From: an uncultured Chloroflexia bacterium
GTDB lineage: Bacteria; Chloroflexota; Limnocylindria; Limnocylindrales; CSP1-4
Direction of reading: 5' to 3'
DNA: 64,000 nucleotides
Assembly (NCBI GenBank): GCA_963696405.1
Contig: CAVOJY010000003.1
Span: 66,407-130,406, forward strand
Both the position numbers and the translations under genes were made by a program. The notes below the pieces were generated by a model, which had not been told where the DNA came from, made no database searches, and saw only the letters and a list, made by a program, of their open reading frames with translations. Of this stretch, positions 29,873-48,084 are shown piece after piece (positions within the stretch are counted from its first letter, which is position 1; the number at the start of each line of letters is the position of its first letter).

Positions 29873-30918
29873 TCAGATGCTGTTCCTTGCGCCGTGGCGG
29901 GCCGGGAGCGCGTAGAACAGTTGCCCGCGGTGCTCGAGAACGACGGCTTGCCCGGTGCTGACGAGCCGGTCGACGACCGACCAGTCGGTGTTCGCCCGGG
30001 CGAGGTACTCGCGTACCGCCGCCTCGCGCATGGGGTGCACGGCGATGATCGCGAGTAGCCCGCTTGCGGCGTCCTCGCCTGCCGCGAATGCGCCGGCTTC
30101 ATTCTCGACGAGCAGGCCTATCCTCAAACCGGCGTCGCTGAAGATCCGCCGCGCACGTTCGAGCGTGGCCGCCGGAGGCACGCGCACGTCCGACTCCGCG
30201 GGCGGGCGGATCGGCGCACTGATGTACGCGGTCGCGGGCCTGAGCGCGGATAGGTAGCTCGCCGTTGCCCGCAACGACCGGTCATCATCGTTGACGCCGG
30301 CCACCAGCATCGTCTCGCTCACGAGCATCGCGTTGCGGTTCGCCGCGAACAACGAGACGCCATCGAGGACCCGACCGAGGTCCAGGCTGCGCGCCGGCCG
30401 GTTGATACGCCGCCAGGCCTCCAGCTCCACGGCGTCGACCTTGACCGAGACCCAGTCGGCAGCAGCAAGATCGGCTCGGACGTCGTCGCGCCACAGCAGC
30501 GAGCCGTTCGTGATGACGGCCACCCGGACCTGCAGCGCCTTCACCCCGCGGATCTCGTCCCCGAGGGCACGTCGAGGGTGGGCTCCCCGTCCGGCACGAA
30601 GCTCGCGTAGTCAACCTGCTCGCCGGCATCCCGGCATGCCTCCAGCCTGGCCTCCACCGCGGCGATGACCTCCCCTGGGGGGAAGAAGGACCGACGTTCA
30701 GCGGACAGATGGTCCGTGCGCCCGGCCTGGCAGTAGACGCACGAGTACGAGCACGACTTCGGTGGAATGTTGTTGATGCCCAGGCTCCGGCCCAGCCGAC
30801 GTGAGGGAACCGGGCCGAACACGATGTCCGGCCCGGTTCCCGACCGCGACGCCGCCGCGCCGGGCGATGGAGGAGAGCAATTCGGTTCCTCCGGCCTCGC
30901 CACGTCGGCGGTCAACAC
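29873..30918 (-). pseudogene. Radical SAM protein (CX3CX2C), split by a 1-nt frameshift (or a sequencing error)
   Basis: The N-terminal part GPVPSRRLGRSLGINNIPPKSCSYSCVYCQ...FVPDGEPTLDV then hits a stop. My retranslation in the other frame continues LGDEIRGVKALQVRVAVITNGSLLW. This is the expected GEPTL...ITNG continuation of one ~340-aa protein. Shift at about 30559-30572. Confidence 0.75.
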
Positions 30919-30950
30919 GTCGGCTCCCCGGTCACGGGCGGGTGCGAGGG

Positions 30951-31382
30951 TCAGCCGGGCCCGTGCCGCCCCGGCCCCATCCCCGACGGCACGTGCACCA
31001 GCTCGGGACGGTGCGCCAGGCGTCCGGCCAGCCAGTCGGCGACGGCCTCGTCGATCAGGCGGGGGCGGGTGGCGATGACCGTGATGCCGGCGGCAGCCAG
31101 GTTCGCCTGCGCGCCCTGTCCGATGCCGCCGACGATGATGGCCTCGCAGTCTGAGCAGGCTCCCAGCATCATCTCGTGACGGCGCGGGCCGTCGGCGGGT
31201 GGATGCTCGCGGTCCCGCGAAACCCCTTCCGCGGCGATGAACATGGAGTGGTTCGCCTTGGGGCGGATCTCCCTCGACGTCTCGCGCCCACTTTCGATGG
31301 TCACGACCGCGAAGGAGCGGGCCCGTCCGAAATGCTGGCTGATGAGGCGGCCGTCATCAGTCGCGAACGCGATCTTCCTCAT
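30951..31382 (-). CDS. NifB/NifX-family (dinitrogenase Fe-Mo cofactor biosynthesis domain) protein
   Basis: MRKIAFATDDGRLISQHFGRARSFAVVTIESG...CEAIIVGGIGQGAQANLAAAGI. Typical PF02579 pattern. ATGA overlap with padR. Confidence 0.75.
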   Translation of the reverse strand: MRKIAFATDDGRLISQHFGRARSFAVVTIESGRETSREIRPKANHSMFIAAEGVSRDREHPPADGPRRHEMMLGACSDCEAIIVGGIGQGAQANLAAAGITVIATRPRLIDEAVADWLAGRLAHRPELVHVPSGMGPGRHGPG

Positions 31383-31819
31383 GGGACTTCCGTTACCTCC
31401 GTGGTCGGCTCCACCCGCTCTCGCGAAGCCTCGCGCTCGGCGGCTTCCGCGAAGCGCCCCAGGAACTCGACCGAGAGCCGCTGCCGTTCGTCCATCACGG
31501 CGGCCCACTCCTCGAGGGCCGACCACCCGGCAGCCGTCAACCGGTACTCCCGCCGAGCGGGCCCGCTGCCGTCGGTCGCCCACGCGGAGGCCACCAATTC
31601 CTCACTTTCGAGGTTGCGAAGCACGCGATAAACCTGGCCGACATCGAGCTCGGGCCCGGAGACACCCATTGACTCGAGACCGGCCGTGATCCCGTACCCA
31701 TGGGTCACCCCCTCCGAGACGAGGAGCAGGACGAACGGCTCCAGCCAACGCCGTCGTCCGTTGCCCGGGTACCGCCAGCCCTGGCGGCGCGGTTCACGAC
31801 CAACCGGAGCTTTATACAT
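31379..31819 (-). CDS. PadR family transcriptional regulator
   Basis: LEPFVLLLVSEGVTHGYGI...VYRVLRNLESEELV...REYRLTAAG. PadR winged helix. Confidence 0.85.
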   Translation of the reverse strand: MYKAPVGREPRRQGWRYPGNGRRRWLEPFVLLLVSEGVTHGYGITAGLESMGVSGPELDVGQVYRVLRNLESEELVASAWATDGSGPARREYRLTAAGWSALEEWAAVMDERQRLSVEFLGRFAEAAEREASRERVEPTTEVTEVP

Positions 31820-32297: not shown

Positions 32298-32621
32298 ATG
32301 AGCTGCTGGCATGGTCATGACTGTGGGTGCGGGGGTCCTGGGCCGCGGGACTCATGGTTTGAAGCGGATCCGCAGGGATGGTGGTACCCGCGAGGCTCGC
32401 CCCGCCGGTCCATTCTCGCCTTGCGCCCAGACGCGACAGCCGCGTCGCTCGAGGCCTACCTGGAAGAGCTTCGGGCTGAGGCCCACGAAGTGGACGAGAG
32501 GCTCCACGCCCTGCGCCGCGCGGCAGCGGGTCACTCGCCACGTCGGACCCAGATGCCCGGTGGACCGCCGCCACCGGTGTCTGACACCGCGGCCGATCCA
32601 GAGGCCGTTGAGCGCCGATAG
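32298..32621 (+). CDS. Small Cys/His/Gly/Trp-rich protein with C-terminal coiled coil (DUF5320-like by resemblance)
   Basis: Start at ATG 32298 with GGAGG 8 nt upstream. MSCWHGHDCGCGGPGP...GWWYPRG... then LEAYLEELRAEAHEVDERLHALRR. Confidence 0.45.
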   Translation: MSCWHGHDCGCGGPGPRDSWFEADPQGWWYPRGSPRRSILALRPDATAASLEAYLEELRAEAHEVDERLHALRRAAAGHSPRRTQMPGGPPPPVSDTAADPEAVERR

Positions 32622-33024
32622 ATAGTCCGCCAAGACGAGGGATGCGATCGGCGGCGCGGCCGTCGGTGGCGCGGTGCGTCGGCCGTCGAGGCGCGGCGCC
32701 CGCCTTTCGTGTCGTACGCAAATCCCCGTCGCGTTGGCCGCCCCGGCGGTGGTCAGCACAGGCCCGGGGGGCCCCAGGGTCCGGCTTGGACGTCCCTACC
32801 CACGCTCGGGCCGGGACATCGGGCCACGGTCAGGGATGCCTTGTCGGTGGTCCAGCCCGATCGTTCCCGGCCAGAACTACGGGGGTTTGCGTATGTCCTG
32901 GTCGGTCTCCCGTCGCCGGGCAGCCCAGGCCCCGGGTCGGTCGCCGGCGACTTCACCCTCGACCAGTTCCTCGCCTCGCCGGGGATCGATGCGTGACGGC
33001 CGACGCCGGACGAAGTGAACGGAC

Positions 33025-33052
33025 TTGACAGGCGTTCCTGATATAGCATAAT
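33025..33052 (+). promoter_or_regulatory. Candidate sigma-70-type promoter of the BMC operon (TTGACA-N16-CATAAT)
   Basis: TTGACA at 33025-33030 and CATAAT at 33047-33052, inside a conspicuous AT-rich patch (gatatagcataatgacataacattcc) about 75 nt upstream of rpiB. Confidence 0.35.
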
Positions 33053-33127
33053 GACATAACATTCCTACTGGTCGGCTGGCACACGAAGCGCCGCCGGCGA
33101 GAAGCGGAGACGCGAGAGCACGGAAAG

Positions 33128-33796
33128 ATGGGCACGGAACGACCAGGTACGCGACCGGACGAGGATGAGATCAGGGCGCTCGTCGCCAGGATGGTGGCGG
33201 GCGTTGTCGGTGCGTCTCCGTCGCCGCTCGGCGTCGCTGCCGGTGTCGGCGCCACTGCCGACGTTCGGTTGGGCGAAGGTGCCGCCAAGGTCCCCGCGGC
33301 CGCCGGTGGGGGCGTGATGCCGACGTCCACGGCCGGCCGTTCTGTTGCCATCGGCGCCGACCACGGCGGGTACGTCCTCAAGGAGCGGCTGGCGGAGTGG
33401 CTCCGGTCGAAGGGATGGGACGTCCGGGACTGCGGGACCCGCAGCGCCGACCCGGTCGACTACCCGGACGTCGCACACGCCGTGGCCATGCTCGTGGCAG
33501 GCGGCGTCTGCGCGAACGGGATCGTGATCGACGGGGCTGGGATCGGCTCCTGCATGGTTGCCAACAAGGTCCCCGGCGTGCGGGCCGCCCTCTGCTACGA
33601 CCTTTCGTCGGCGCGCAACAGCCGCGAGCACAACCACGCGAACGTCCTGACGCTCGGTGCGCGACTCATCGGCGATGGTCTTGCGCAGGAGATCGTTGAG
33701 ACATGGCTCGCCACGCCGTGGGGCGAGGGACGTCATGCCGCGCGCGTGGCGAAGATCGCCGACGTCGAGCGGCGCTACCTCAAGGGAGCAGGCTGA
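33128..33796 (+). CDS. rpiB: Ribose-5-phosphate isomerase B (RpiB/LacAB family) with ~65-aa N-terminal extension carrying an encapsulation-peptide-like helix
   Basis: Core SVAIGADHGGYVLKERL...GIVIDGAGIGSCMVANKVPGVRAALC...SREHNHANVLTLGARLIG. Extension DEDEIRALVARMVAGVV followed by an A/G/P linker. Confidence 0.85.
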   Translation: MGTERPGTRPDEDEIRALVARMVAGVVGASPSPLGVAAGVGATADVRLGEGAAKVPAAAGGGVMPTSTAGRSVAIGADHGGYVLKERLAEWLRSKGWDVRDCGTRSADPVDYPDVAHAVAMLVAGGVCANGIVIDGAGIGSCMVANKVPGVRAALCYDLSSARNSREHNHANVLTLGARLIGDGLAQEIVETWLATPWGEGRHAARVAKIADVERRYLKGAG

Positions 33797-34692
33797 TGGC
33801 GGTTGACACGAACGAGCTCATCGACCTCGTCACGCGCCGGGTGCTCGCCACCCTCGACGCGCCGGAGGGCGCGCCGGCGGACTGCGCAGGGTGCACCGGC
33901 TCCTGCGTGACCAGGTGCCCGGCACGGGTGGCCAGCGTGGTGTCGAGTGGCGCGTCCCGCCTCAGTTCGCGCGGCGACGCCGCGGCCACGCCCCGGCACC
34001 TCGCCCGCTTCATCGACCACACGCTGCTGAAGCCGGACGCCACCGCGACCGAGGTCGACCGCCTCTGTGACGAGGCAGGGGAGTACGGCTTCGCCGCGGT
34101 CTGCGTGAACCCGACGTGGGTGCGGCGCTGCGCAGACCGCCTCCGCGGGACCGACGTCGCCGTCGCGTCCGTGGTGGGCTTTCCGTTCGGGACGAGCGTG
34201 CCCGAGGTGAAGGCGATGGAAGCCCGCCGGGCGGTCCGGGACGGCGCTCGTGAGATCGACATGGTCATCAACATCGGCGCCCTCAAGAGCGGCGACCTCG
34301 CGCTGGTCCGGGAGGACATCGCGAAGGTGTCGGATGCCTGCCACGAGGCGGGCGCGCTCAACAAGGTGATCATCGAGGCCGCCCTCCTGACCGACGAGGA
34401 GAAGGTCGTCGCCTCCCGCCTCGCGCGGCAGGCCCGGGCGGACTACGTGAAAACCTCGACTGGGTACGCGTCCGGGGGCGCCACGGTCTATGACGTGGCC
34501 CTCATGCGCGAGGCAGTGGGACCCCACATGGGCATCAAGGCGGCCGGAGGGATCCGGTCCGCGGATGACGTGGAGAAGATGATCGCGGCCGGTGCGACGA
34601 GGATCGGCGCGTCGGCCGGGGTCAGGATCGTGACCGGTACGGCGGCTCCGGCCGGCGAGACCGGTGCGAAGGACGGGAAGGGAAGCGAGTGA
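33796..34692 (+). CDS. deoC: Deoxyribose-phosphate aldolase (DeoC family) with N-terminal encapsulation-peptide-like helix and Cys-rich linker
   Basis: Core [12 protein letters not shown]...AAVCVNP...VVGFPFG...IDMVINIG...VKTSTGY...IKAAGGIR (class I aldolase Lys in VKTSTG). N-terminus [20 protein letters not shown], then [16 protein letters not shown] overlaps the rpiB stop (TGATG). Confidence 0.9.
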
Positions 34693-35327
34693 GCGACATC
34701 GTTCTCCGGGCGTACACGTTCCTCGACAGCCTGCAGCCGCAGTACGCGGCATTTCTCGGCACGGTCGCCCAGGGCTTTCTGCCCCTGGCGCGCGACGCGT
34801 CCCTCTATGTCGAGATCTCGCCGGGCATCGAGATCAACCGGCTGACCGACGTCGCCCTCAAGGCGACCGCGGTCAAGCCGGGCATGCAGATCATCGAGCG
34901 GTACTACGGCCTCCTCGAGATCCATTCGACGTCCCAGGCGGAGGTCCGCGCCGCGGGCGCCGCGATTCTCCGGGATATCGGTGCCGATGAGCGCGACCGC
35001 ATGAAGCCGAAGGTCCTCTCGAGCCAGATCGTCCGGCGCATCGACGATCACCAGGCGCAGCTCATCAACCGCATGCGCCACGGACAGATGCTCATCCCCG
35101 GGCAGACGCTCTACGTGCTCGAGCTCGAGCCGGCGGCCTACGCCGCGCTGGCGGCGAACGAGGCGGAGAAGGCCGCCCACATCAACATCCTCGAGGTCCG
35201 CTCGTTCGGCTCGAACGGACGCGTGTACCTGGGCGGCGAGGAACGGGATATCGACGTGGCGTGGCGGGCCGCCCTTGCCGCCATCGAGGGCCTGGAAGGG
35301 AAGGAAGGCAAGCCCGAGAAGGCCTGA
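34689..35327 (+). CDS. BMC-T shell protein, CcmP/CsoS1D-like tandem-domain (double-stacking, gated-pore type)
   Basis: [54 protein letters not shown]...[18 protein letters not shown]...[24 protein letters not shown]...LGGEERD tracks the CcmP sequence pattern as I remember it almost segment for segment. GTG start overlaps the deoC stop. Confidence 0.85.
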
Positions 35328-35373
35328 GGGTCGCCGTAGCGGCACAGAAGAAGCCAATCAAGGAGACACGCAG

Positions 35374-35676
<303 letters not shown>

Positions 35677-35748
35677 CCCGGGAGCGTCGGGTCGGGGCGC
35701 CGGCAGCGGTGCCCCGACCGGGACGCCTCGCGGCACGGTGAGGTAACC

Positions 35749-36036
35749 ATGCTGCTTGCGCGCGTGGCTGGCACGGTCGTGGCCAGCCGCAAGGAACCGC
35801 TGATGGAGGGGCTCACGCTCCTGCTCCTGCGGCAGCTCGACGTTGACGATAGCGAGACGGGCGGCTACGTGGTGGCCGTGGATGCCGTGGGTGCCGGGGT
35901 CGGCGAAGTCGTGCTGTTCGCCTCGGGCAGCTCGGCCCGCCAGACGGCCGCGACCAGGGACCGGCCCTGCGACGCGGTGGTCATGGCCATCGTCGACACC
36001 TGGGAGGTTGGCGGGACGACCGCTTACACGAAGTGA
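35749..36036 (+). CDS. BMC-P pentameric vertex protein (EutN/CcmL family), copy 1
   Basis: [17 protein letters not shown]...LLLLRQLD...[24 protein letters not shown]. Confidence 0.9.
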
Positions 36037-36094
36037 CGGCCCCGGGGGCCGGGGCGGACGTCCCGGCCCCTTCGGTCGATGAGGTGCCCGAGGA

Positions 36095-37579
36095 ATGACG
36101 ATCAGCAGGCCGCCTGACATCGACGAACGCGACGTCGCGGACGTCATCGCACGCGTCCGCGACCGGCTCGGGCTGCCGGGGGCCGCGGTCGAGGCCCGGT
36201 TGGGGTCACCTGCCGGCCCAGTCGCGCCCGCGGAGCCGGTCACCCCGGACACCGCGCTGGGCATCCACCCGACGGTCGAGTCGGCCGTGGGGGCCGCCAG
36301 GGAGGCCTTCCGAGCATACGGATCGATCGGGCTCGACCGGCGGTACTGCATCGTCGAGGCGATCCGGCGCGCCGCGCTTGCCGAGGCCGACCGCCTGGCC
36401 CACATGGCGCTCGAGGAGACCGGCATGGGCCGCCTCGACGACAAGGCGACGAAGATCCGGATCGTGGCCGAGAAGGCGCCGGGGCCCGAGGACCTCGAGC
36501 CGCGGGCGACCACCGGCGACCGGGGCATGATGATCACCGAGTGGGCCCCGTTCGGGATCCTCGCCTCGATCACCCCGATTACGAACCCGGCCTCCACCAT
36601 CATCAACAACACGATCAGCGGGATCAGCGCCGGGAACGCCATCGTCTTCAACCCCCACCCCGGAGCGAAGCGGGTCTCGGCCGAGACGGTCCGCGTCATC
36701 AACCGCGCGATTGTCGAGGCAGGCGGACCGCCGGGACTGGTCACGGCGGTCGCGGAGCCGACGATCGAGTCGGCCCGCGAGCTGATGAACCACGACGCGG
36801 TGTCGGTCCTCGTGGTCACCGGCGGGGGCGCCGTGGTCCGCGAGGCACTGAAGACGGCCAAGCGCGCGGTGACCGCCGGTCCCGGCAACCCGCCGGCCGT
36901 GGTGGACGAGACAGCCGACCTGGAGAAGGCCGGGCGGGACCTCGTCCTGGGCGCCTCCTTCGACAACAACATCGTCTGCATCGACGAGAAGGAAGTCCTC
37001 GTCGTCGAGCGCGTGGCGGACCGCCTCATCGAGTCGATGGTGCGCCACGGCGCGTACCTCCTCCGCGAGCACGAGCTCCGCAAGGTCGAGCAGCTCATCT
37101 TCAGCGGGCCGGTCGAGCCGCCCCGCCACGGCATGGTCGACGTACGCTGGGTGGGGAAGGACGCCGACCGGATTCTCGCCGCGATCGGAGGCCGCGCCGA
37201 CCGCGAGATCCGGCTCCTCATCGCCGACGTCCCGCGGGGGCACCCGCTCGTCTACACGGAGCAGCTGCTCCCCGTCCTGCCGATCGTGCGGGTCCGCGAC
37301 GTGAACGAGGCGATCAGCCTCGCGGTGGAGGTGGAGCACGGCTTCAAGCACACGGCTTCCATCCACTCGGCGAACGTCGAGACGATCACGCGCATGGCCC
37401 GCGCCATGAACTGCAGCATCTTCGTGGCGAACGGTCCGTGTTTCGCCGGGCTCGGCGAAGGCGGCGAGGGGTTCACCTCGTTCTCGATCGCCAGCCCGAG
37501 CGGGGACGGTCTCACCCGTCCGCGCACCTTCTCGCGCGAGCGCCGGGTCACCGTCGTCGGCGCGCTGAGGATCGTGTGA
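36095..37579 (+). CDS. CoA-acylating aldehyde dehydrogenase (PduP/EutE-like) with N-terminal encapsulation-peptide-like helix
   Basis: Catalytic Cys context FDNNIVCIDEKEVLV, ITPITNPAST, TGGGAVV, GPGNPPAVVDETAD. N-terminus ERDVADVIARVRDRLGL followed by a P/A linker. Confidence 0.9.
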   Translation: MTISRPPDIDERDVADVIARVRDRLGLPGAAVEARLGSPAGPVAPAEPVTPDTALGIHPTVESAVGAAREAFRAYGSIGLDRRYCIVEAIRRAALAEADRLAHMALEETGMGRLDDKATKIRIVAEKAPGPEDLEPRATTGDRGMMITEWAPFGILASITPITNPASTIINNTISGISAGNAIVFNPHPGAKRVSAETVRVINRAIVEAGGPPGLVTAVAEPTIESARELMNHDAVSVLVVTGGGAVVREALKTAKRAVTAGPGNPPAVVDETADLEKAGRDLVLGASFDNNIVCIDEKEVLVVERVADRLIESMVRHGAYLLREHELRKVEQLIFSGPVEPPRHGMVDVRWVGKDADRILAAIGGRADREIRLLIADVPRGHPLVYTEQLLPVLPIVRVRDVNEAISLAVEVEHGFKHTASIHSANVETITRMARAMNCSIFVANGPCFAGLGEGGEGFTSFSIASPSGDGLTRPRTFSRERRVTVVGALRIV

Positions 37580-38208
37580 TGCCGCTCGAGCGGCCGGTGG
37601 ACCCCGCGGAGGCGATGCGACCCGCTCTCGCGCTCCTCGAGCTCGACTCGATCGCCGCCGGCATCGACGCCGGCGACGCCATGGCCAAGCGGGCCGCCGT
37701 GGAGACGCTCCTCGCCGGCACCGTCCACCCGGGGAAATACCTGGTGCTCGTCGCGGGCGACGTCGCCGCGGTCGAGGAATTGTTCGCCGCCGGCGAGGAC
37801 CGGGGCGCGGGCCACATCGTGGACCGGGTCATCCTGCGGGACGTCCACCCGGGCGTGGTCGCCGCCCTGACGGGGACCCGGCTGGGAGACGACGTGGAGG
37901 CCCTGGGGGTCCTGGAGACAGCGTCCGTGGCGGCCACCGTGGAGGCTGCCGACGCCGGCCTCAAGGGTGCCAGGGTGATCCTCCTCGAGATGCGGCTCGC
38001 CGACGGCCTGGGCGGCAAGGGATATCTCCTCTTCGGTGGAACCGTGTCGGCCGTGGAAGCGGCCGTCGAGATCGGCGCCGGGCGCATCGCACCCGACGCG
38101 GCGGTCGCGGTCCGCGTCATCCCGCGACTCGACCCGCGGATGCGCGAGAACCTGGCCGCGGAGCCGCGGTTCCGACACCGTGTCCGCGGGACGGCCGGGG
38201 AGGGCTAG
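37579..38208 (+). CDS. BMC-T shell protein, PduT-like tandem BMC-domain
   Basis: Two PF00936-like halves: LALLELDSIAAGIDAGDAMAKRAAV...YLVLVAGDVAAVEE and ALGVLETASVAATVEAADAGLKGARV...GYLLFGGTVSAVEAAVE. ATG overlaps the AldDH stop (TGATG). Confidence 0.85.
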   Translation: MPLERPVDPAEAMRPALALLELDSIAAGIDAGDAMAKRAAVETLLAGTVHPGKYLVLVAGDVAAVEELFAAGEDRGAGHIVDRVILRDVHPGVVAALTGTRLGDDVEALGVLETASVAATVEAADAGLKGARVILLEMRLADGLGGKGYLLFGGTVSAVEAAVEIGAGRIAPDAAVAVRVIPRLDPRMRENLAAEPRFRHRVRGTAGEG

Positions 38209-38213
38209 CGGCC

Positions 38214-38498
38214 ATGCAGCTCGGACGGGTCATCGGCACGGTCGTCGCCAGCGTCAAGGATCCCGGCATCGAGGGGGTCCCGCTCCTGATCGTGCAGCCT
38301 CTCGACCGCGAGCGGAGGCCCTCCGGCCGGCCGTTCGTCGCCGCCGACGCCCTGCGCATGGCCGGGCCCGGCGAGCTCATCTACTGGGTCGGGGCGCGCG
38401 AGGCGGCCCAGGCGCTCGAGGAGACGTTCGCCCCGGTGGACCACGCGATCGTCGGGATCGTGGACGCGGTCGAGCCACTGGCGGGCGGGCGGCCATGA
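38214..38498 (+). CDS. BMC-P vertex protein (EutN/CcmL family), copy 2
   Basis: MQLGRVIGTVVASVKDPGIEGVPLLIVQPLD... Confidence 0.9.
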   Translation: MQLGRVIGTVVASVKDPGIEGVPLLIVQPLDRERRPSGRPFVAADALRMAGPGELIYWVGAREAAQALEETFAPVDHAIVGIVDAVEPLAGGRP

Positions 38499-38773
38499 AG
38501 GTCGGTCGCGTCGCCGGTACCGTCGTCGCAACCGTCCAGGCGCCGGTGTTCGACGGGCGAACGCTGCTCCTGTGCACGCTCCTCGACGCCGACGGAGCGG
38601 AGAGCGACGGCTACATCATCGCCGCCGACACGGTGGGCGCCGGGGCGGGAGAGACCGTGCTCATCCTCGACGAGGGCACGTCGGCGCGGCAGATCGTCGA
38701 CGTTGCCACGGGACCGATCCGGGCTGTCGTGGTGGGCATCATCGACCAGGTCGACGCCTGGCCGCTTGGGTGA
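38495..38773 (+). CDS. BMC-P vertex protein (EutN/CcmL family), copy 3
   Basis: [31 protein letters not shown]...IIAADTVGAGAGETVLILDEGTSAR. ATGA overlap with copy 2. Confidence 0.9.
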   Translation: MKVGRVAGTVVATVQAPVFDGRTLLLCTLLDADGAESDGYIIAADTVGAGAGETVLILDEGTSARQIVDVATGPIRAVVVGIIDQVDAWPLG

Positions 38774-39597
38774 GCGGCTCGCGCAGCACACCGGCCGCCC
38801 GACCCGGACCGACCGCGCTCGCCGCGGCGGCGGACCCTCCGTTCCCGCCCGACCTGTCCGTCAGCCGCACGCGCCCCGAGCCGTTGCGATACCAGATCCG
38901 ACGGGCGATCGCCGGGCAGATCGCCTCGGGCGAGCTCGCCCCGGGTGACCGCCTCCCGACCGAGCGCGAGTACGCCGACCGGCTCGGCGTCAGCCTCGCC
39001 CCGGTCCGCCAGGCGCTCCTCGACCTGGTCGCGACCGGCCAGCTCTACCGTGTCAAGGGGAAGGGGACGTTCGTCCGGGAGCCGGGCCTCGAGGAGGAGA
39101 TCACGCTGCTCCTCGGTTTCACCGACACCCTGCGGCATCTCGGGGTGCCGTTCCGGATCCGGGTGCTCGAGCAGGGCCTGGTCCCGGCGCCGGTGTGGGT
39201 GGCGCGCGCACTCGACGTGCCTGCCGGCGCGCCGGTCGTACGCCTGCGGCGCCTCGCGCTCGTGCGAGGCGAACCGGCTGCCGTGCTCGACGCGTTCCTG
39301 CCCGCCGAGCGCTTCCCCTCCCTTGCCGCGAGCGGGGAATTCGAGGACGGACAGTCGCTCTACCGACGGCTCGAGGAGGAATTCGGGGTGCAGCTTCGGG
39401 GGACCAGCGGGACCCTCCAGGTCGTCCACTGTGACGACGTCCAGGCAACGCTGCTCGACGTCCCGGTCGGCTCGGCCGCGCTCTTGGTCCGCTCGCTCGC
39501 CACCGACACGTCGGGCCGGCCCGTGGAGGCCGCGAACGTCCTCTATCGCGCCGATCGGTTCGTCTTCCACATCGAGCGCCCCCGCGTCCGGCCCTGA
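38770..39597 (+). CDS. GntR/HutC-family transcriptional regulator (wHTH + UTRA domain)
   Basis: YQIRRAIAGQIASGELAPGDRLPTEREYADRLGVSLAPVRQALLDLVATGQLYRVKGKGTFV plus a UTRA-like C-terminal domain. Candidate GTG start at 38770 overlaps the BMC-P stop (GTGA). Confidence 0.85.
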   Translation: MSGSRSTPAARPGPTALAAAADPPFPPDLSVSRTRPEPLRYQIRRAIAGQIASGELAPGDRLPTEREYADRLGVSLAPVRQALLDLVATGQLYRVKGKGTFVREPGLEEEITLLLGFTDTLRHLGVPFRIRVLEQGLVPAPVWVARALDVPAGAPVVRLRRLALVRGEPAAVLDAFLPAERFPSLAASGEFEDGQSLYRRLEEEFGVQLRGTSGTLQVVHCDDVQATLLDVPVGSAALLVRSLATDTSGRPVEAANVLYRADRFVFHIERPRVRP

Positions 39598-39623
39598 CCG
39601 ATGCGAGCGCCCCGGCCGCTGGA

Positions 39624-40466
39624 TCAGGCGGGCCGAGCGCGCCGCCCGCCGCGAAGCCCCAGCCTGGGTGCGACGACGAGGGCGACGAAGAACGCGGCCG
39701 TCTCGACGAGCACGATGGTGGCACCGCTCGGCACGTCGAACCAGTAGCTGAGGTACAGGCCGGTGACGGACGCGGCAACGCTCACGATGATCGCCACGGC
39801 CACCATGCGAAGGAAGCGGTGCGTGAGGAGCTGCGCCGTGGCGGCGGGAGTGACGAGCATGGCCACGACCAGGATGATCCCGACGGCCTGGATGCTGGCG
39901 ACGATCGTGATGGCGATGAGGACCAGGAGCAGGTACTCGAGCCTGGTCACGGGCAGGCCGGCGGCTGCGGCGCCGAGGGGATCGAAGGTCGCGTAGAGAA
40001 GCTCCTTCCAGAAGACCCCGACGATGATGATCACGGCGATCGCCAGCACGCCGAGGCCGGCCAGCTCGAGCGCGCTGATGGCGAGGATGTTCCCGAAGAG
40101 AAGGCCGAAGAGGTCGACGACGTAGCCCTGGATCCGGCTGAAGAGGAAGACGCCGAGGGCGAACATCCCGGCGAAGAGGACGCCGATCGCCGTGTCTCCA
40201 CGGAGGCGGCCCCTGCGGCTGACGACGCCGATGAGCACGGAGGTGAAGATCGCGGCGACACCGGCGCCGACCAGCACCGGCGCCTGGAGGATGAACGCCA
40301 CGACCACGCCCGGAAGCGCCGCATGGCTGATGGCGTCCCCGGCGAAGGCGAGCCCCTTGAGCACGACGTAGCTGCCGACGATGGCGCAGGCGACGCCGAC
40401 GAGCACCGCGGCGGCCAGCGCCCGGTCGAAGAAGCCGTACGCGAGAGGTTCCAGGATGGCGTCCAT
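39624..40466 (-). CDS. Metal (Zn/Mn) ABC transporter permease (ABC-3 family)
   Basis: Polytopic ZnuB/MntB/TroC-like pattern (MDAILEPLAYGFFDRAL...). Start taken at ATG 40466, one nt after the ATPase stop. Confidence 0.85.
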   Translation of the reverse strand: MDAILEPLAYGFFDRALAAAVLVGVACAIVGSYVVLKGLAFAGDAISHAALPGVVVAFILQAPVLVGAGVAAIFTSVLIGVVSRRGRLRGDTAIGVLFAGMFALGVFLFSRIQGYVVDLFGLLFGNILAISALELAGLGVLAIAVIIIVGVFWKELLYATFDPLGAAAAGLPVTRLEYLLLVLIAITIVASIQAVGIILVVAMLVTPAATAQLLTHRFLRMVAVAIIVSVAASVTGLYLSYWFDVPSGATIVLVETAAFFVALVVAPRLGLRGGRRARPA

Positions 40467-40467
40467 C

Positions 40468-41424
40468 TCAGCCCGGTCCCGGTGCGCCATTGTGGTAGTG
40501 CCGCTCGCCCCCCTCGGGCGCGTCATGGTGGTGGGCGTCATCGAGCACGACCGTACCGCCCCGGACGACGAGGAGATGCCCACCGTACGTCCGCGCCAGG
40601 ACGTCGGGGTCGAGGACGAGGGAGGACGGTCCGAACGCCATGATCGTGCGGTTGATGGCCGCCACGCGCTGGAACCGCTGGGCGACGCAGGCGAGGTCGT
40701 GGGTGGTGGCCACGACCGTCTTGCCCCGCCGGGCTTCCCCCTCGAGGATGTCCATGAGGTCTTCCTGGGTCGTCGCGTCGATGCCGGTGACGGGCTCGTC
40801 GAGCAGGAAGAGCGCCGCTTCCGCCGCGAGCGCCCGGGCCAGGAACACGCGGCGCCGCTGGCCGCCTGACAGGGCTCCGATCTGGGTGCGCTCCGCGCCG
40901 CCCATGCCCACCTTGGCGAGGGCTGCCGCGACGGCGTCCCGGTCCGCCGCTCCCGGGCGCCGCACCAGTCCGAGCCCCGGGTAGCGGCCCATCATGACCA
41001 CGTCCCAGGCCGTGACCGGGAAGCCCCAGTCCACGAGCTCCGCCTGGGGCACATAGGCCACCCGCCTGGCCTCGCGGCCGGGCGGCGACCCCAGGACCTC
41101 GACGCGGCCACCGACGGGGGCGAGGAGGCCCGCCATGACCTTGAGCAGCGTGCTCTTGCCGGCGCCGTTGGGACCGACGACCGCCAGCAGGGTGCCGGCT
41201 TCCACGGCCAGGCTGATGCGCTCGATCGCAACCGTGTTGTCGTACCCGGCGGTCACGTCTGACAGCCACACGTCCGCGTGGGCGCGCGCGTGGCCGGCAT
41301 CGACAGCCTGGCCCACCACCGGGAGCGCGCGGTCGGCGGTCGGGTGGTCGTGCGGATGGGCGTGGGGATCGAACCCCCGCGCACCCGGGCCGTGCTCTTC
41401 CGGCCGCTGCGGGTCTTCGGTCAC
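40468..41424 (-). CDS. Metal ABC transporter ATP-binding protein with His-rich N-terminus
   Basis: Walker A GPNGAGKST, signature LSGGQRRR, Walker B LFLLDEP. N-terminal DPHAHPHDHP tract. Confidence 0.9.
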   Translation of the reverse strand: MTEDPQRPEEHGPGARGFDPHAHPHDHPTADRALPVVGQAVDAGHARAHADVWLSDVTAGYDNTVAIERISLAVEAGTLLAVVGPNGAGKSTLLKVMAGLLAPVGGRVEVLGSPPGREARRVAYVPQAELVDWGFPVTAWDVVMMGRYPGLGLVRRPGAADRDAVAAALAKVGMGGAERTQIGALSGGQRRRVFLARALAAEAALFLLDEPVTGIDATTQEDLMDILEGEARRGKTVVATTHDLACVAQRFQRVAAINRTIMAFGPSSLVLDPDVLARTYGGHLLVVRGGTVVLDDAHHHDAPEGGERHYHNGAPGPG

Positions 41425-41425
41425 G

Positions 41426-42397
41426 TCACGAGGATCCCGCGGGCCGCAAAGCGTTCACGAGCTGCTCGACGTCGTGACGGATCATTGCCTCGTACGTGTC
41501 AAGCGGCGGATCCCCGAGCGCGTCGTCGTACAGGTCCGAGACGACGCGGGCGCCGGTCTCGTCCGCGAGGCGTTGCACGAGGTTGGGCGGGAACTGCGCC
41601 TCACTGAAGACCGCCTTGGCGCCCGCGGCCTTGACGGCGTCGATGAGGGCCGCCATCTCCCCGGCGCTGGGTTCCTGGCCCGCCGCGTCGACGATCGTTC
41701 CAACGGCGGTGAGCCCGTAGGCCCGGGTGAAGTAGGGGAACGCGTCGTGGTACAGCACGAGCTTCCGATCCGCCGGAGGGATCGTCGCGATCTCATCGCG
41801 AACCCAGCGATCAAGGTCGGCCAGCCGCGACCGGTAGGCGGCCGCGCCGTCCCGGTACGCGGCGCCGCCGGCCGGATCGGCCGCGACGAGTGCATCCGCG
41901 ATCCGGTCCACGTACTTCATCGCGTAGGTGACGTCGAGCCAGAGGTGGGGGTTCGGCTCGACTGCCTCGCCTCCGGCGATGTAGTCGACGCCAGGGAGGT
42001 TCTCCCCGAGTCGAACCACGGCGGCGGTCGAGCCGGAGCTCTCGATCGTCCTGGCCAGCCAGTCGTCGAGACCCAGCCCGTTCATGACGATGAGGCGCGC
42101 CCCGGCGAGCCGCGCCGCGTCGGATGGCTTCGGCTCGAACGTGTGGGGGTCGACGCCGCGAGGCACGAGGCTCACCACGTCGACGCGGCTGCCGCCGACC
42201 TGCCGGACGAGATCGCCGAAGACCGAGCTCGTGGTGACGACCGAGACCCCTGCCCCCGGCACAGCGGAGGGCGACCCGCCGCCGGCGCCTGAACAGGCGG
42301 CGAGCAGCGCGGCGAGCGCGACGAGCGCAAGCGCGAGGACAACCGCAGGCGCGGGCCTCCGGTGCTGCCTGGCGTCTGCGGGGCCGTACCACCTCAT
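41426..42397 (-). CDS. Metal ABC transporter substrate-binding lipoprotein (ZnuA/TroA family)
   Basis: Signal/lipobox ALAALLAACSG. VVTTSSVFGDLVRQVGG...VDPHTFEPKPSD...NGLGLDDWL. ATG 42397 overlaps the Fur-family stop (ATGA). Confidence 0.85.
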   Translation of the reverse strand: MRWYGPADARQHRRPAPAVVLALALVALAALLAACSGAGGGSPSAVPGAGVSVVTTSSVFGDLVRQVGGSRVDVVSLVPRGVDPHTFEPKPSDAARLAGARLIVMNGLGLDDWLARTIESSGSTAAVVRLGENLPGVDYIAGGEAVEPNPHLWLDVTYAMKYVDRIADALVAADPAGGAAYRDGAAAYRSRLADLDRWVRDEIATIPPADRKLVLYHDAFPYFTRAYGLTAVGTIVDAAGQEPSAGEMAALIDAVKAAGAKAVFSEAQFPPNLVQRLADETGARVVSDLYDDALGDPPLDTYEAMIRHDVEQLVNALRPAGSS

Positions 42398-42858
42398 GGG
42401 GCGGCCGCCCCGTTGCACTCGGCGCAGCGCCCATAGAGCTCTATCCGGTGCGCCTCGGCCGTGAACCCGGCTCGCCGCGCGGCCTCGCGGATCGCCGCGT
42501 GAAGCTCGGCGTCGACGATGTCCACCGTGCGGTGACACTCGGTGCACACCGCGTGGTGGTGGTGGTGGTGGACGGGCTCGCAGGACACATACGCGTGCTC
42601 GCCGGTCGGGAGGTCGATCCGTTCGATCGCGTCGAGTTCACCGAGCAGTTCCAGCGTCCGGAAGATCGTGGCGCGACCGATGGCAATCTCCCCCGCGCGT
42701 GCACTGCGAGCAAGATCCGCGGCGGTGAAGTGGCCGGTCTGCCGAGCGATCAGCGCGGCGACGAGCCGCCTCGGCTCCGTCTGCCGGTAGCCTGCTCGAC
42801 CCAGGATCTCGACGAGCGGCGCCGCGGCGCGCGGCGGATTGATACTCGGTCTCATCAT
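42394..42858 (-). CDS. Fur-family metalloregulator (Zur-like) containing an internal His6 run
   Basis: RQTEPRRLV...FTAADL...IGRATIFRTLELL...CEPVHHHHHHAVCTECH...YGRCAEC. Start taken at MMRPS (ATG 42858). Confidence 0.8.
   Translation of the reverse strand: MMRPSINPPRAAAPLVEILGRAGYRQTEPRRLVAALIARQTGHFTAADLARSARAGEIAIGRATIFRTLELLGELDAIERIDLPTGEHAYVSCEPVHHHHHHAVCTECHRTVDIVDAELHAAIREAARRAGFTAEAHRIELYGRCAECNGAAAP
42553..42570 (-). repeat. (CAC)6 trinucleotide repeat encoding His6 inside the Fur-family gene
   Basis: Plus strand reads gtggtggtggtggtggtg. Confidence 0.9.
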
Positions 42859-43113
42859 GGGCCAAATGATACCCGGTCTCGTCAGACACTGCGAGAACCA
42901 CGAACCGAGAGAGTCACCCGCGAGGCTCCCGGCGGATGCAGAACGACACCGCGGAGGCTCTCTGCTGCAGACTGCACCCGTCGCCGCGGTCGGGGGAGGC
43001 CGTCCGGCCCGCAGTCCTCGTCCGCCTGCGGTACCCTCTGGCCCAATCATCATCTCGGCTCAATCGCCGACCGCAGGATCGTCGAACCGCAGATCCCCGA
43101 AAGGAGCCTCCCC

Positions 43114-43974
43114 CTGTCCTCGAACCGCCCCACCTCGAAGTCCGCGACCCGGCGGGAACGGCGCGCCGCCGAGCGCGATCAGCGCCGCCAGGCGGCCCCG
43201 AAGCCGTCGGGACTGTCGGTCCGGATCCCGCCCATCGCGTGGATCACGGGCGCTGCGATCGCCGTGGGCGTGCTCGTCATCATCATCGCTGTCGTGGCGA
43301 TCGGTGGGCGCGGCGGCCCGAGCGTCGCGCTGACCAAGCCCGCCGAGCTGGCGCCCAGCGAACTCATCGACGGTCGCTCGATTGGGTCGGCGGAGGCGCC
43401 GGCGCAGATGGATGTCTGGGCGGACTACCAGTGCCCCGGCTGCGGCATCTTCAGCGAAGACGTCGAACCGCGGCTGATCAACCAGTACGTCCGGCAGGGC
43501 AACCTCCGGATCACGTTCCGCGATTTCGCTTTCCTGGGCCAGGAATTGCTCGATGCCGCGGTGGCCGCCCGCTGCGCCGGTGAACAGGGGCAGTTCTGGC
43601 ACTACATGCAGTACGTCTTCGCGAACCAGAGCGGCGAGAACCAGGGCCGGTTCACCCGGGCGTTCCTCGACAGCGTCGCCCGCGAGCTGGGCCTCGACGT
43701 GAACGCGTTCGGTTCCTGCCTGGCCGGCACCAAGGCGAAGCAGGCCGTGGCTGACGAGACCAACCAGGGAGGCGCCGTCCCCATCAGCTCGACTCCAACG
43801 CTCATCGTGAATGGCCAGAAGGTCGCCTCGCTCGAGTTCGGTGTCATCACGAAGGCCATCGATGACGCGATCGCCGCCGCGCAGGGAGGCACCCCTGCGC
43901 CGGGATCGCCGGCGGCCAGCGGGCCGCCCGCGGCGAGCTCGTCGCCCGTGACCACCCCGACGCCGACACCGTGA
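43114..43974 (+). CDS. DsbA-family thiol:disulfide oxidoreductase, membrane-anchored
   Basis: TM anchor AWITGAAIAVGVLVIIIAVVAIG and active site DYQCPGCGIF. No in-frame ATG/GTG follows the strong AAAGGAG SD. A CTG at 43114 is the best-placed candidate, so the start is uncertain. Confidence 0.7.
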   Translation: MSSNRPTSKSATRRERRAAERDQRRQAAPKPSGLSVRIPPIAWITGAAIAVGVLVIIIAVVAIGGRGGPSVALTKPAELAPSELIDGRSIGSAEAPAQMDVWADYQCPGCGIFSEDVEPRLINQYVRQGNLRITFRDFAFLGQELLDAAVAARCAGEQGQFWHYMQYVFANQSGENQGRFTRAFLDSVARELGLDVNAFGSCLAGTKAKQAVADETNQGGAVPISSTPTLIVNGQKVASLEFGVITKAIDDAIAAAQGGTPAPGSPAASGPPAASSSPVTTPTPTP

Positions 43975-44405
43975 ACCGGGAACGGACGATCCTGGGGGCC
44001 GCCCTCACGGCCCTGGCGATCGTCGCCGTGGTCACCTCCGGCTACCTGGCCTGGGTGAAGCTCGCAGGGATCATCCCCGAGTGCGGCCCGGTCAAGGGGT
44101 GCGAGACGGTCGAGGCGAGCCCGTACAGCGAGATCTTCGGCATTCCCGTGGCCCTGCCCGGTTTGCTCATGTCGCTGGCGATCCTCGTCAGCGTCGTGGC
44201 CTGGTGGTGGTCGGGCGATCGCCGCCTCCTCTACGTCCCGTATGCCCTGGGCATCCTCGGCCTGTTCGTGGTCGGGTACCTGACGTACCTCGAGCTGTTC
44301 GTCATCCACGCCATCTGCATCTGGTGCGTGACATTTGCGATCGCGATCGTCGCCGGCTGGATCGTCACGCTCGTGGCCATGCGGCGGACGGCCGCGAGCG
44401 GCTGA
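43971..44405 (+). CDS. Vitamin K epoxide reductase (VKOR) family protein
   Basis: Four TM segments, loop cysteines ECGPVKGC and redox motif CIWC. Overlaps the DsbA stop. DsbA-VKOR is the usual actinobacterial pairing. Confidence 0.85.
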   Translation: MNRERTILGAALTALAIVAVVTSGYLAWVKLAGIIPECGPVKGCETVEASPYSEIFGIPVALPGLLMSLAILVSVVAWWWSGDRRLLYVPYALGILGLFVVGYLTYLELFVIHAICIWCVTFAIAIVAGWIVTLVAMRRTAASG

Positions 44406-44427
44406 CGGCGGCCGGGGAGGCAGCGGC

Positions 44428-46464
44428 ATGCGGCTCTGGGGAGGGCGTTTCACGGGAGAAAGCGATCCGGGCGTTGCAGCGTTCACGCGGTCGCTCGAGA
44501 TCGACCGCCTCCTGGCGGCCGACGACATCGCAGGCTCGATCGCCCACGTGCACGGCCTCCTCCGCGCTGCCCTCGTCTCCCAGGCCGATGCTGACTCGAT
44601 CGTGGCTGGGCTGGAGGCGCTCCGCTCGGAGATCGAGGCTGGCACCTTCCCCTGGGACCCGGCGCTCGAGGATGTCCACCTCAACGTCGAGGCGGCCCTC
44701 ACCGCCCGGATCGGCCCTGTCGCCGGGAGGCTGCATACAGGGCGGTCCAGGAACGACCAGGTTGCGCTCGACCTGCGGCTCTGGCTTCGCCGGACGAGCC
44801 GCGACGTCGACGCGGGCGCCCGGGACCTGCAGCGAGCCCTGGTCGAACGGGCGGAGCGGGACGGGGAGGCGGTCCTGCCCGGGATGACGCACGGACAACC
44901 GGCACAACCGGTGCTCCTCGCGCACCATCTCCTGGCCTACGTCGAGATGCTCGAGCGCGACCGCGGTCGCTTCGTCGACGCGCAGCGCCGGGCCGATCGC
45001 TGCCCGCTCGGCGCGGGAGCGCTGGCAGGCGCCGGGTTCGCCCTGGACCGCGAAGCAACCGCCGCGGAGCTCGGGTTCGCGGGCGTCACCACCAACTCGA
45101 TCGACGCAGTGAGCGACCGCGATTTCGTGGTGGAGTTCCTGTCGGCGGCCGCGCTCTGCATGACCCACCTCTCGAGGCTGGCCGAGGAGCTCGTGTGGTG
45201 GTCGAACCCGGCGTTCGGCTGGGTCGAGCTCTCGGACGCGCACGCCACCGGCTCCTCGATGATGCCGAACAAGAAGAACCCCGACCCGTGCGAGCTCGTG
45301 CGGGGGCGCGCCGCCCGCGTCCACGGGCATCTGACGACCATGCTCGGCGTACTCAAGGGGCTGCCGCTGGCCTACCAGCGCGACCTCCAGGAGGACAAGG
45401 CGCCGCTCTTCGACACCGCGGACGTGCTTGAAGCGTCGCTGCGGGTCATGGCGGCGGTCATCGGGGGGCTCACCTTCCACCCGGAGCGGATGCGCCGTGC
45501 CGCGCTGACCGGGCACGTCACGGCTACTTCGGTCGCCGACGCGCTGGTCGAACGCGGGCTGCCGTTCCGGGCTGCGCATCATGTCGTCGGCCGCCTCGTG
45601 GCGGAGGCTGAGGGGGCGGGGGTGCGCCTGGACGAGCTTCCGGACTCGGCGTTCTCGGCCGCGCTCGCCGCGGAGGAGCATGACGACGCGCGCCGGATCG
45701 CGTCCCAGGCCCGGGAGACGGAGACGCTCGCGGCGGCCCTCCGCGAAGCCGCGACGCTCGAGGCCGCGATCGCGCGCCCCCGCGTCACCGGAGGTACCGC
45801 ACCGGAACGGGTCCGCGACGCGGTCGTGGCGGCACGGCGCCGGCTCGACGAGGACTGGCGAGCAGCCTGGGATGAGCGCCACGCGGCGGAGGAGCACATC
45901 GAGGCTGCGGACCCCAATCCCCACCTGGTCGCCGAGGTGAGCGGGCTGGCGCCCGGACGGGCCCTCGACCTGGCAACCGGCGCCGGGACGAACGCGTTGT
46001 GGCTCGCCGCGCACGGGTGGCACGTCACCGCGATCGACTTCTCGAGGGTCGGGCTCGAGAAGGCGCGTCACCAGGCGGGCGAGGCGGGTCTTGCCGTGGA
46101 CTGGGTCCTGGCCGACCTCCGCGAGTTCGACCCGCCGCGGCGCGCCTACGACCTGGTGACCATCGCGTTCCTCCACCTGCCCGTCGACGAGCGCCGCCCG
46201 ATCTACCGCCGGGCAGCGGAGGCCGTGGCCCCCGGCGGCACGCTCCTCGTCATCGGCCACGACCGCTCGAACCTCTCGCAGGGTGTGGGCGGGCCGCAGG
46301 ACCCTTCGGTCCTCTTCACGCCGGACGAGATCGCAGCGGATCTCGGCGAGCTCGAGGTCGTGCGATCCGAGGTGGTGCCGCGACCCACGGGGTCCGGGAG
46401 GAGCGCCCTCGACGCGGTCGTGCGGGCGGTTCGACCGCCTGCCGGGGACCGATCCCCGGCCTGA
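44428..46464 (+). CDS. argH: Argininosuccinate lyase fused to a C-terminal class I SAM-dependent methyltransferase domain
   Basis: MRLWGGRFTGE..., GRSRNDQV and GSSMMPNKKNPDPCE signature, then about 200 aa with ALDLATGAGTNALWLAAHGWHVTAIDFS...LVTIAFLHLP...PGGTLLVIGH. GGGGAGG SD before ATG 44428. Confidence 0.85.
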   Translation: MRLWGGRFTGESDPGVAAFTRSLEIDRLLAADDIAGSIAHVHGLLRAALVSQADADSIVAGLEALRSEIEAGTFPWDPALEDVHLNVEAALTARIGPVAGRLHTGRSRNDQVALDLRLWLRRTSRDVDAGARDLQRALVERAERDGEAVLPGMTHGQPAQPVLLAHHLLAYVEMLERDRGRFVDAQRRADRCPLGAGALAGAGFALDREATAAELGFAGVTTNSIDAVSDRDFVVEFLSAAALCMTHLSRLAEELVWWSNPAFGWVELSDAHATGSSMMPNKKNPDPCELVRGRAARVHGHLTTMLGVLKGLPLAYQRDLQEDKAPLFDTADVLEASLRVMAAVIGGLTFHPERMRRAALTGHVTATSVADALVERGLPFRAAHHVVGRLVAEAEGAGVRLDELPDSAFSAALAAEEHDDARRIASQARETETLAAALREAATLEAAIARPRVTGGTAPERVRDAVVAARRRLDEDWRAAWDERHAAEEHIEAADPNPHLVAEVSGLAPGRALDLATGAGTNALWLAAHGWHVTAIDFSRVGLEKARHQAGEAGLAVDWVLADLREFDPPRRAYDLVTIAFLHLPVDERRPIYRRAAEAVAPGGTLLVIGHDRSNLSQGVGGPQDPSVLFTPDEIAADLGELEVVRSEVVPRPTGSGRSALDAVVRAVRPPAGDRSPA

Positions 46465-48077: not shown

Positions 48078-48084
48078 GGGAACC

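Follow-up and report, generated by a model that had tools for sequence, protein, structure and literature searches.

Among bacterial microcompartments (BMCs), the sugar-phosphate utilising (SPU) class was defined in 2014, and was expanded and divided into subtypes in 2021 (Sutter et al. 2021, Nat Commun 12:3809). In the model put forward for this class, 2-deoxyribose-5-phosphate (dR5P) is split into glyceraldehyde-3-phosphate (G3P) plus acetaldehyde, the latter being subsequently turned into acetyl-CoA (PMC8217296, PMC11585597). Compartments of this kind are thought to allow many uncultured soil and sediment bacteria to exploit deoxyribose from DNA in the environment and, at the same time, to keep the acetaldehyde contained. 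The present analysis deals with one SPU locus carried by a 64-kb stretch of DNA (~71% G+C; hereafter the window, meaning the whole 64,000 nucleotides) from an uncultured Chloroflexia bacterium (GTDB order Limnocylindrales, CSP1-4; assembly GCA_963696405.1, contig CAVOJY010000003.1, positions 66,407 to 130,406), where an operon occupies positions 33025-39597 of the + strand.

We know of no native SPU organelle that has been isolated so far. The only SPU enzymes characterised in vitro are those of an SPU6 locus from the Chloroflexi bacterium GWB2_54_36 (Dwyer, Sutter and Kerfeld 2024, Commun Biol 7:1562), whose purified deoxyribose-5-phosphate aldolase (DERA) is active on dR5P and forms complexes with an RpiB-family protein (RPI) (PMC11585597), whereas the self-assembly of an SPU-type compartment shell from Hodarchaeales was described in a 2025 preprint (PMC12747264). 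An earlier note on this DNA, made from the sequence alone, had stated that no such compartment had been characterised biochemically, a statement overturned by the 2024 assays of SPU DERA and RPI (PMC11585597) and by the self-assembling archaeal shell (PMC12747264). In the case of subtype SPU3, 31 loci have been listed from Acidobacteria, Actinobacteria, Chloroflexi, Gemmatimonadetes and others (Sutter et al. 2021, Supplementary Data 2). According to the same source, the enzymes of SPU3 loci are a CoA-acylating aldehyde dehydrogenase (AldDH) and a pfam02502 protein followed by a pfam01791 protein, the last two sometimes fused, with no PTAC; N-terminal encapsulation peptides occur on AldDH and on the pfam01791 protein, and the shell contains a CcmP-like BMC-T(dp) together with a BMC-T(s) that lacks both a PduS partner and a pore cysteine.

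The locus in the window is an ordinary example of SPU3, within a class that has been recorded from hundreds of genomes and has received some biochemical characterisation. From its genes it is read as a functional SPU3-type microcompartment operon transcribed from one promoter (33025-33052), a reading to which we give a probability of roughly 0.85. The operon is made up of the following features:

33025-33052, + strand: sigma-70-like promoter, TTGACA-16 nt-CATAAT, 11/12 matches, within a 27-nt AT-rich island
33128-33796, + strand: RpiB-family protein (RPI), 222 aa, PF02502 (1.4e-51), domain at residues 73-210
33796-34692, + strand: DERA, the signature enzyme, 298 aa, PF01791 (4.4e-19) and TIGR00126
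34689-35327, + strand: BMC-T(dp), CcmP-like permuted tandem-domain protein, 212 aa, NCBIfam CcmP (333 bits)
35374-35676, + strand: BMC-H, the sole hexamer protein, 100 aa, PF00936 (1.9e-29), single domain
35749-36036, + strand: BMC-P1, pentamer vertex protein, 95 aa, PF03319 (9e-28), the solitary member of the triplet
36095-37579, + strand: CoA-acylating aldehyde dehydrogenase (AldDH) of the PduP/EutE type, 494 aa, PF00171 (7.4e-39) and PRK15398
37579-38208, + strand: BMC-T(s), PduT-like tandem-domain protein, 209 aa, PF00936 in two stretches (1.4e-29)
38214-38498, + strand: BMC-P2, pentamer protein, 94 aa, PF03319 (2.7e-24), first of the adjacent pair
38495-38773, + strand: BMC-P3, pentamer protein, 92 aa, PF03319 (1.8e-22), second of the adjacent pair, overlapping P2 through ATGA
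38770-39597, + strand: GntR/HutC-family regulator with GntR and UTRA domains, up to 275 aa, PF00392 (winged helix, 2e-18) and PF07702 (UTRA effector domain, 3.1e-31)

The earlier note had described ten co-directional genes in one operon, most of them joined by stop/start overlaps. All ten open reading frames (ORFs) were recovered intact from the ORF calls and the reading of the sequence, where that note had placed them and on the + strand, and overlaps were read directly at five of the nine junctions (TGATG at 33794 and 37577, GTGA at 34689 and 38770, ATGA at 38495), the remaining four showing gaps of 46, 72, 58 and 5 nt. The G+C content at third codon positions (GC3) lies between 0.87 and 0.94 in every one of them, a host-like value, as in the real genes of this genome. 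The promoter, whose first base is the very start coordinate that the earlier note had given for the operon (33025), is the only sigma-70-like match in the interval 32500-40000, for which 0.2 matches would be expected from shuffled sequences, and its end at 33052 precedes the first ATG by 76 nt. Promoter and first ATG are both conserved in an environmental contig (L081), in which the promoter is identical. Over the -10 box, an imperfect palindrome read by eye, TATAGCAT-A-ATGACATA, may represent a candidate operator. No credible intrinsic terminator was seen inside the operon, whose downstream neighbour, an ABC-3 permease gene, is convergent with it, and an Rfam scan of the whole window returned zero matches, and thus no riboswitch in the leader.

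With regard to the shell, the inventory proposed in that note (one BMC-H, two BMC-T and three BMC-P) is borne out by Pfam and NCBIfam family scores far above chance, and the profiles PF00936, PF03319, PF02502, PF01791 and PF00171 were all matched within the operon. Every shell ORF scores to BMC or EutN/CcmL-type models, with the qualification that the BMC-T(dp) gene (34689-35327) reaches only 21.5 bits against the Pfam BMC model, under its cut-off of 24.5, because its domains are permuted, and is recovered by the NCBIfam CcmP model with the 333 bits given above. The same protein scores 286 bits to the CcmP structures 4ht5/5lsr and 179 bits to CsoS1D, and retains the Glu-Arg gate motif of CcmP (IIERYYGL); from these features it is predicted to be a double-stacking protein with a gated large pore. 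The BMC-H gene, with an AAGGAG 8 nt 5' of its ATG, encodes the standard KAAK and ARPH interface motifs. BMC-T(s) gives 126 bits to PduT (3n79) and contains no cysteine at all, with His50 (GTVHPGKY) at the position of the cysteine ligand of the PduT 4Fe-4S cluster, so that three histidines would line the pore on the three-fold axis. Pairwise identity among the BMC-P proteins is 36-49%, P2 sharing 36-39% with P1 and P3.

The solved shell of Haliangium ochraceum (HO; PDB 5v74 and related entries) consists of one BMC-H, three BMC-T and three BMC-P, and has the BMC-P triplet in common with the window. The likeness extends to the individual proteins, as BMC-H scores 144.5 bits to 5djb and is near-identical in its motifs to the HO hexamer, BMC-T(dp) reaches 256 bits with 5v76 and 232 bits with 5v74, and BMC-T(s) 90 bits with 5dih. 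On the other hand, HO has two BMC-T(dp) paralogues where the window has one, and its main locus lacks DERA and RPI. Given the closeness of the two shells, the present locus would lend itself well to the reconstitution of an SPU3 organelle. An HO-type BMC, that is, an AldDH with an HO-like shell and neither DERA nor RPI, does not describe the locus, whose operon opens with RPI and DERA.

The assignment to the SPU class, already made in the earlier note, can be taken further, as every testable feature fits subtype SPU3 of Sutter et al. 2021. The general features of the class are all present: DERA, the signature enzyme unique to SPU, an adjoining RPI with Asp in place of Cys66, AldDH, and a BMC-P triplet with P2 and P3 adjacent and P1 apart. 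The likeness to SPU3 lies in an enzyme set limited to AldDH and pfam02502 followed by pfam01791, in a CcmP-like BMC-T(dp), in a cysteine-free BMC-T(s), in the lack of PTAC and PduS, and in N-terminal extensions on AldDH (~46 residues) and DERA (~68 residues) with a putative role in encapsulation. Nothing in the locus conflicts with the SPU3 definition, the clades of shell proteins being represented in this comparison by the number and arrangement of the genes. The regulator sets the locus somewhat apart, being a GntR/UTRA protein at the 3' end where close SPU3 relatives have a SorC-type, a TetR or an upstream GntR regulator.

Subtype SPU6 had been guessed at first, in view of the missing PduS and the GntR-type regulator. 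The SPU6 locus does resemble the window in its succession of RPI, DERA and AldDH, its GntR/UTRA regulator, the DERA catalytic triad, a DERA N-terminal extension of ~70 residues, the replacement of Cys66 by Asp in RPI, the BMC-P triplet and the lack of PTAC and PduS. However, the SPU6 AldDH belongs to an EUT3-related branch and bears a C-terminal encapsulation peptide, whereas the AldDH of the window, ~30% identical to those of SPU6-type loci, has an N-terminal extension only. The BMC-T(dp) of SPU6 is of the blue clade, BMC-T(s) is lacking, and a EutQ-like protein of ~130 aa is encoded, whereas the window has a CcmP-like BMC-T(dp), a BMC-T(s) and no extra small ORF. The gene orders differ as well, RPI-DERA-P-AldDH-H-Tdp-P-P in SPU6 and RPI-DERA-Tdp-H-P-AldDH-Ts-P-P in the window, and the SPU6 assignment was rejected. 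The same applies to SPU2, which has the BMC-P triplet plus an extra green-clade BMC-P (four in total) and a BMC-T(s) usually with a pore cysteine (Sutter et al. 2021), as against three BMC-P and a BMC-T(s) without cysteine in the window. The SPU-type operons of Hodarchaeales (bioRxiv 2025.11.08.687404) share with the window a core of DERA and AldDH, dR5P as the proposed entry metabolite and the BMC-P triplet, but contain two BMC-H genes, a PTAC and an MNdh/PduS-type partner together with BMC-T(s), none of which is found in the window; neither does the window contain their flavoprotein-DERA fusion or the DNA-binding tail carried by one of their BMC-P proteins.

Relatives were collected by scanning species-representative genomes with the DERA protein, which gave 80 loci (L001-L080), and these were compared by tblastn with the ten window proteins. 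The order RPI-DERA-Tdp-H-P1-AldDH-Ts-P2-P3 is identical in ~24 of the 80 loci, distributed among Chloroflexota, Acidimicrobiia, an "Actinomycetes" metagenome-assembled genome (MAG), Thermoanaerobaculia and other Acidobacteriota, Woeseiaceae and Marinimicrobia, with Gammaproteobacteria included, and several of these loci show the RPI-DERA fusion reported for SPU3. The closest relatives share 63-71% identity in DERA, 77-88% in the hexamer-type shell proteins and 57-66% in AldDH, a figure that falls to 48-55% in more distant SPU3-type loci. Loci from Anaerolineae follow the SPU6 order, and their AldDH proteins are merely 28-34% identical, with two split hits at 39-43%. Exact-protein look-ups with AldDH and DERA gave no match, but an identical BMC-H protein is encoded by six short environmental contigs, whose nucleotides are 86-98% identical where aligned (95.5-98% in five of them); environmental contigs in this range of identity contain the same genes. 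The comparison with the longest environmental contig, L081 (95.5% identical), yields dN/dS values of 0.00-0.19 per gene and 0.11 overall, which indicates purifying selection on all nine genes for shell proteins and enzymes.

The presence of a deoxyribose-phosphate aldolase among the enzymes, as the earlier note had it, is firmly supported. The protein scores 269 bits to the deoC equivalog TIGR00126 (cutoff 117.3) and 262 bits to the DERA structure 8qps, and the catalytic triad of E. coli DERA is retained in it as D155, K219 and K248. Its N-terminal extension of ~68 residues lies outside the domain models, and structure prediction places a helix at residues 5-21. Between this helix and the aldolase barrel there is a four-cysteine motif, C30-x2-C33-x3-C37-x3-C41 (window 33883-33921). 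In 56 homologues (identity of 67% or more), C33 and C37 never vary, and conservation is at least 90% at C30 and C41. Most of the extended DERAs in the fetched loci have at least four cysteines inside 11-13 residues, with a lineage-specific spacing (2-3-3 as in the window, 1-4-3, or the 3-4-3 found in SPU6-type loci), while some lineages have two or zero. In the 2024 SPU paper this region appears as two low-confidence strands, with no mention of cysteines or metals (PMC11585597). An AlphaFold model of the full-length protein, built on the 56-sequence alignment, gives pLDDT values below 50 at residues 23-62, and the prediction is hence uninformative as to whether the four cysteines converge. The cluster may bind a metal or an Fe-S centre, or may form redox-sensitive disulfides that control the aggregation or the activity of the cargo.

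Likewise, the PduP/EutE-type aldehyde dehydrogenase announced in that note is recognised by PRK15398 with 599 bits. It aligns at 404 bits and ~50% identity with 5jfl, a solved acylating aldehyde dehydrogenase of the microcompartment type, and its catalytic Cys295 falls on the corresponding cysteine of that structure. The N-terminal extension of ~46 residues, DERDVADVIARVRDRLGL, lies outside the domain models and aligns weakly with the N-terminal peptide of 5jfl, and the alignment reaches residue 493 of 494, which excludes a C-terminal extension.

In the case of RPI, membership of the RpiB family holds, but the function implied by the earlier name of ribose-5-phosphate isomerase B does not. An N-terminal extension of ~72 residues, with a putative encapsulation helix, DEDEIRALVARMV, and a Pro/Ala/Gly linker, is followed by a domain whose active site is a variant of that of E. 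coli RpiB (1nn4), with Asp135 replacing the catalytic Cys66 and Ala137 replacing Thr68. Residues 135-140 (window 33530-33547) read DGAGIG, against CGTGVG in RpiB, and the equivalents of D9, H10, H99, N100, R133, H134 and R137 are retained as D78, H79, H168, N169, R202, H203 and R206. Aspartate occupies the Cys66 position in all SPU RPIs (Dwyer et al. 2024, PMC11585597), and the SPU6 homologue shows negligible isomerase activity on ribose-5-phosphate (R5P) while forming a stable complex with DERA that has no kinetic effect on the aldolase (PMC11585597). The protein encoded here is not a conventional R5P isomerase. Nevertheless, of the 65 RPI genes that adjoin DERA in the fetched loci, from several phyla, all but one (64) retain the DGAGIG motif along with the His-Asn and Arg-Arg positions. 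Such conservation at ~50% overall identity suggests that the site is still used for binding or catalysis, since its preservation would not be foreseen in a protein that served purely as a scaffold. RPI may accordingly be a working partner of DERA, either ligand-binding or catalytic (a sugar-phosphate receptor or a ring-opening subunit), and not an inert scaffold. That the RPI site and the DERA cysteine cluster, neither of them discussed in the SPU literature examined, are both functional is a tentative idea which we regard as rather doubtful.

Taken together, these data are compatible with the following scheme. BMC-H, BMC-T(dp), the cysteine-free BMC-T(s) and the three BMC-P would form an icosahedral shell, by homology to the solved HO shell, and DERA, the RPI-like protein and AldDH would be packed inside it by means of their N-terminal extensions. 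DERA and RPI would form a complex, as their assayed SPU6 counterparts do. The starting point would be dR5P derived from the breakdown of DNA or deoxynucleosides, which would enter the shell and be cleaved by DERA to G3P and acetaldehyde, as expected from the conserved catalytic residues and from the in vitro activity of the homologue. AldDH would then turn the trapped acetaldehyde into acetyl-CoA, with production of NADH. Finally, the promoter is probably kept repressed by the GntR/UTRA protein as long as the latter has no sugar phosphate bound. The aldolase/dehydrogenase part of the chemistry outlined in the earlier note thus coincides with the published model, whereas its pentose limb is not retained: given the variant site of RPI and the inactive homologue, the "(deoxy)pentose" phosphate is narrowed to dR5P, and a route from R5P is not apparent.

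Pfam scans of the ORF calls of the 64-kb window revealed no PTAC (PF06130), Fe-ADH (PF00465), PduS, TPI or class II aldolase, and no genes of nucleoside catabolism. In the absence of PTAC, alcohol dehydrogenase and PduS from the window, CoA/acetyl-CoA and NAD+/NADH would need either to pass through the shell or to be regenerated by enzymes whose genes lie in other parts of the genome. Exchange through BMC-T(dp) has been proposed, and SPU loci without PTAC typically have a BMC-T(dp) (Dwyer et al., PMC11585597), a pattern that the window fits; the passage of cofactors would most plausibly take place through the gated pore of this protein. Several observations weigh against a compartment that works as described. 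The locus itself encodes no solution for cofactor recycling, and the Pfam-scanned ORFs of the 64-kb window include no enzyme that would produce dR5P, be it a nucleoside phosphorylase, a phosphopentomutase or a deoxyribokinase. Repeat finding for an operator of the GntR protein gave merely weak and distant inverted repeats, with no clear operator. The putative encapsulation helices gave a marginal outcome when examined for their hydrophobic moment (0.05 for RPI and AldDH, 0.24 for DERA). In addition, the homologue assayed in vitro belongs to SPU6, not SPU3, and is ~50-55% identical.

The preferred reading, a compartment that processes dR5P, has to be set against the possibility that the real substrate is another sugar phosphate, with RPI as an active isomerase that uses Asp135 as its base and either feeds or follows the aldolase, so that the action of DERA on dR5P would be an incomplete or a wrong description. 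The conservation of DGAGIG in 64 of 65 RPI genes, along with the phosphate-binding and ring-opening residues, is what would be expected of a selected working site and not of a decaying pseudo-enzyme, and a carboxylate base does work in the RpiB of M. tuberculosis (discussed in PMC11585597). However, the SPU6 homologue hardly isomerises R5P and leaves the kinetics of DERA unaltered in the complex (PMC11585597), and the lack of a 2-OH in dR5P makes an aldose-ketose isomerisation of this sugar impossible. DERA scores as a deoC equivalog far above the cutoff (269 against 117.3 bits) and keeps its full catalytic triad, and SPU5 loci dispense with RPI entirely (Sutter et al. 2021, Supplementary Data 2), all of which makes a different substrate unlikely.

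A more radical alternative regards the operon as a horizontally acquired relic, either unexpressed or no longer building a compartment. The cassette is clearly mobile between phyla, its flanks are unrelated to it (PadR and radical SAM genes upstream, znuABC and zur downstream), and the genes that would supply dR5P and recycle cofactors are not nearby. A decayed locus would nonetheless be hard to reconcile with ten intact ORFs of host-like GC3 (0.87-0.94), with a dN/dS of 0.11 against the 95.5%-identical relative, with a promoter both near-consensus and conserved, or with translational coupling preserved at five junctions, and we deem a relic very improbable. In the preferred reading, that of a functional SPU3 operon, the locus stands as a clean and complete example with minimal enzymes, which in 6.5 kb, under one promoter and without accessory enzymes, represents the subtype in a high-GC uncultured host. 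It leaves the existing knowledge of the SPU class unchanged.

A GntR/HutC regulator as the last gene of the operon, another element of the earlier description, is supported by PF00392 and PF07702. Its GTG start overlaps the stop of BMC-P3, and the gene in L081 likewise begins where P3 ends. A Pro/Ala-rich stretch of ~35 residues at the N-terminus leaves the precise start uncertain. Among close SPU3 relatives, four loci have a SorC-type regulator (PF04198) directly 5' of RPI, two have a TetR and one has a GntR/UTRA regulator there, unlike the GntR/UTRA gene of the window and L081, which is coupled to the 3' end of the operon:

L004:8315-9376, L008:8381-9379, L033:8330-9328 and L074:8384-9358: SorC-type (PF04198) regulators
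L011:8800-9453 and L013:617-1279: TetR regulators
L005:8566-9375: upstream GntR/UTRA regulator

The SorC family includes DeoR of B. subtilis, a sensor of dR5P, and the regulators of these four relatives count in favour of the preferred reading.

With respect to the surroundings of the operon, no close relatives of the flanking proteins were found among the fetched loci. Upstream, on the - strand (29873-31819), a radical-SAM-like gene is seemingly split into two overlapping ORFs (30541-30918, with a CxxxCxxC motif, and 29873-30544), next to genes for a NifX/NifB-type PF02579 protein and a PadR regulator. In an Anaerolineales MAG (L021:4251-5300), weak homologues (33-45% identity) of the split radical-SAM pair and of PadR are likewise found ~5 kb upstream of its SPU6 locus. 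Directly downstream and convergent, the - strand (39624-43053) carries a metal ABC transporter of the znuB/znuC/znuA type and a Fur-family (Zur-like) regulator, with no evident link to microcompartments. Farther downstream, a 709-aa ORF on the + strand (44335-46464), adjoined by DsbA-like and VKOR genes (43108-44405), combines an argininosuccinate-lyase-type Lyase_1/ASL_C2 region with a SAM-methyltransferase domain at its C-terminus; provided that the ORF is real, this would be an unusual fusion. On the - strand at 16592-22498 there is a cluster encoding a PLP-dependent enzyme, two lyases of the fumarase/ASL family, a ComA-type phosphosulfolactate synthase (PF02679) and a DUF7714 protein, which may be involved in sulfonate or coenzyme-M-like biosynthesis. 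Finally, the + strand at 47514-51589 carries a gene for an MvhD/FlpD-like protein and, after it, genes for two HdrA-like FAD/4Fe-4S proteins. For one of the latter, cluster members are named heterodisulfide reductase subunit A by JGI, and this set of genes points to an anaerobic or microaerobic host metabolism with electron bifurcation.

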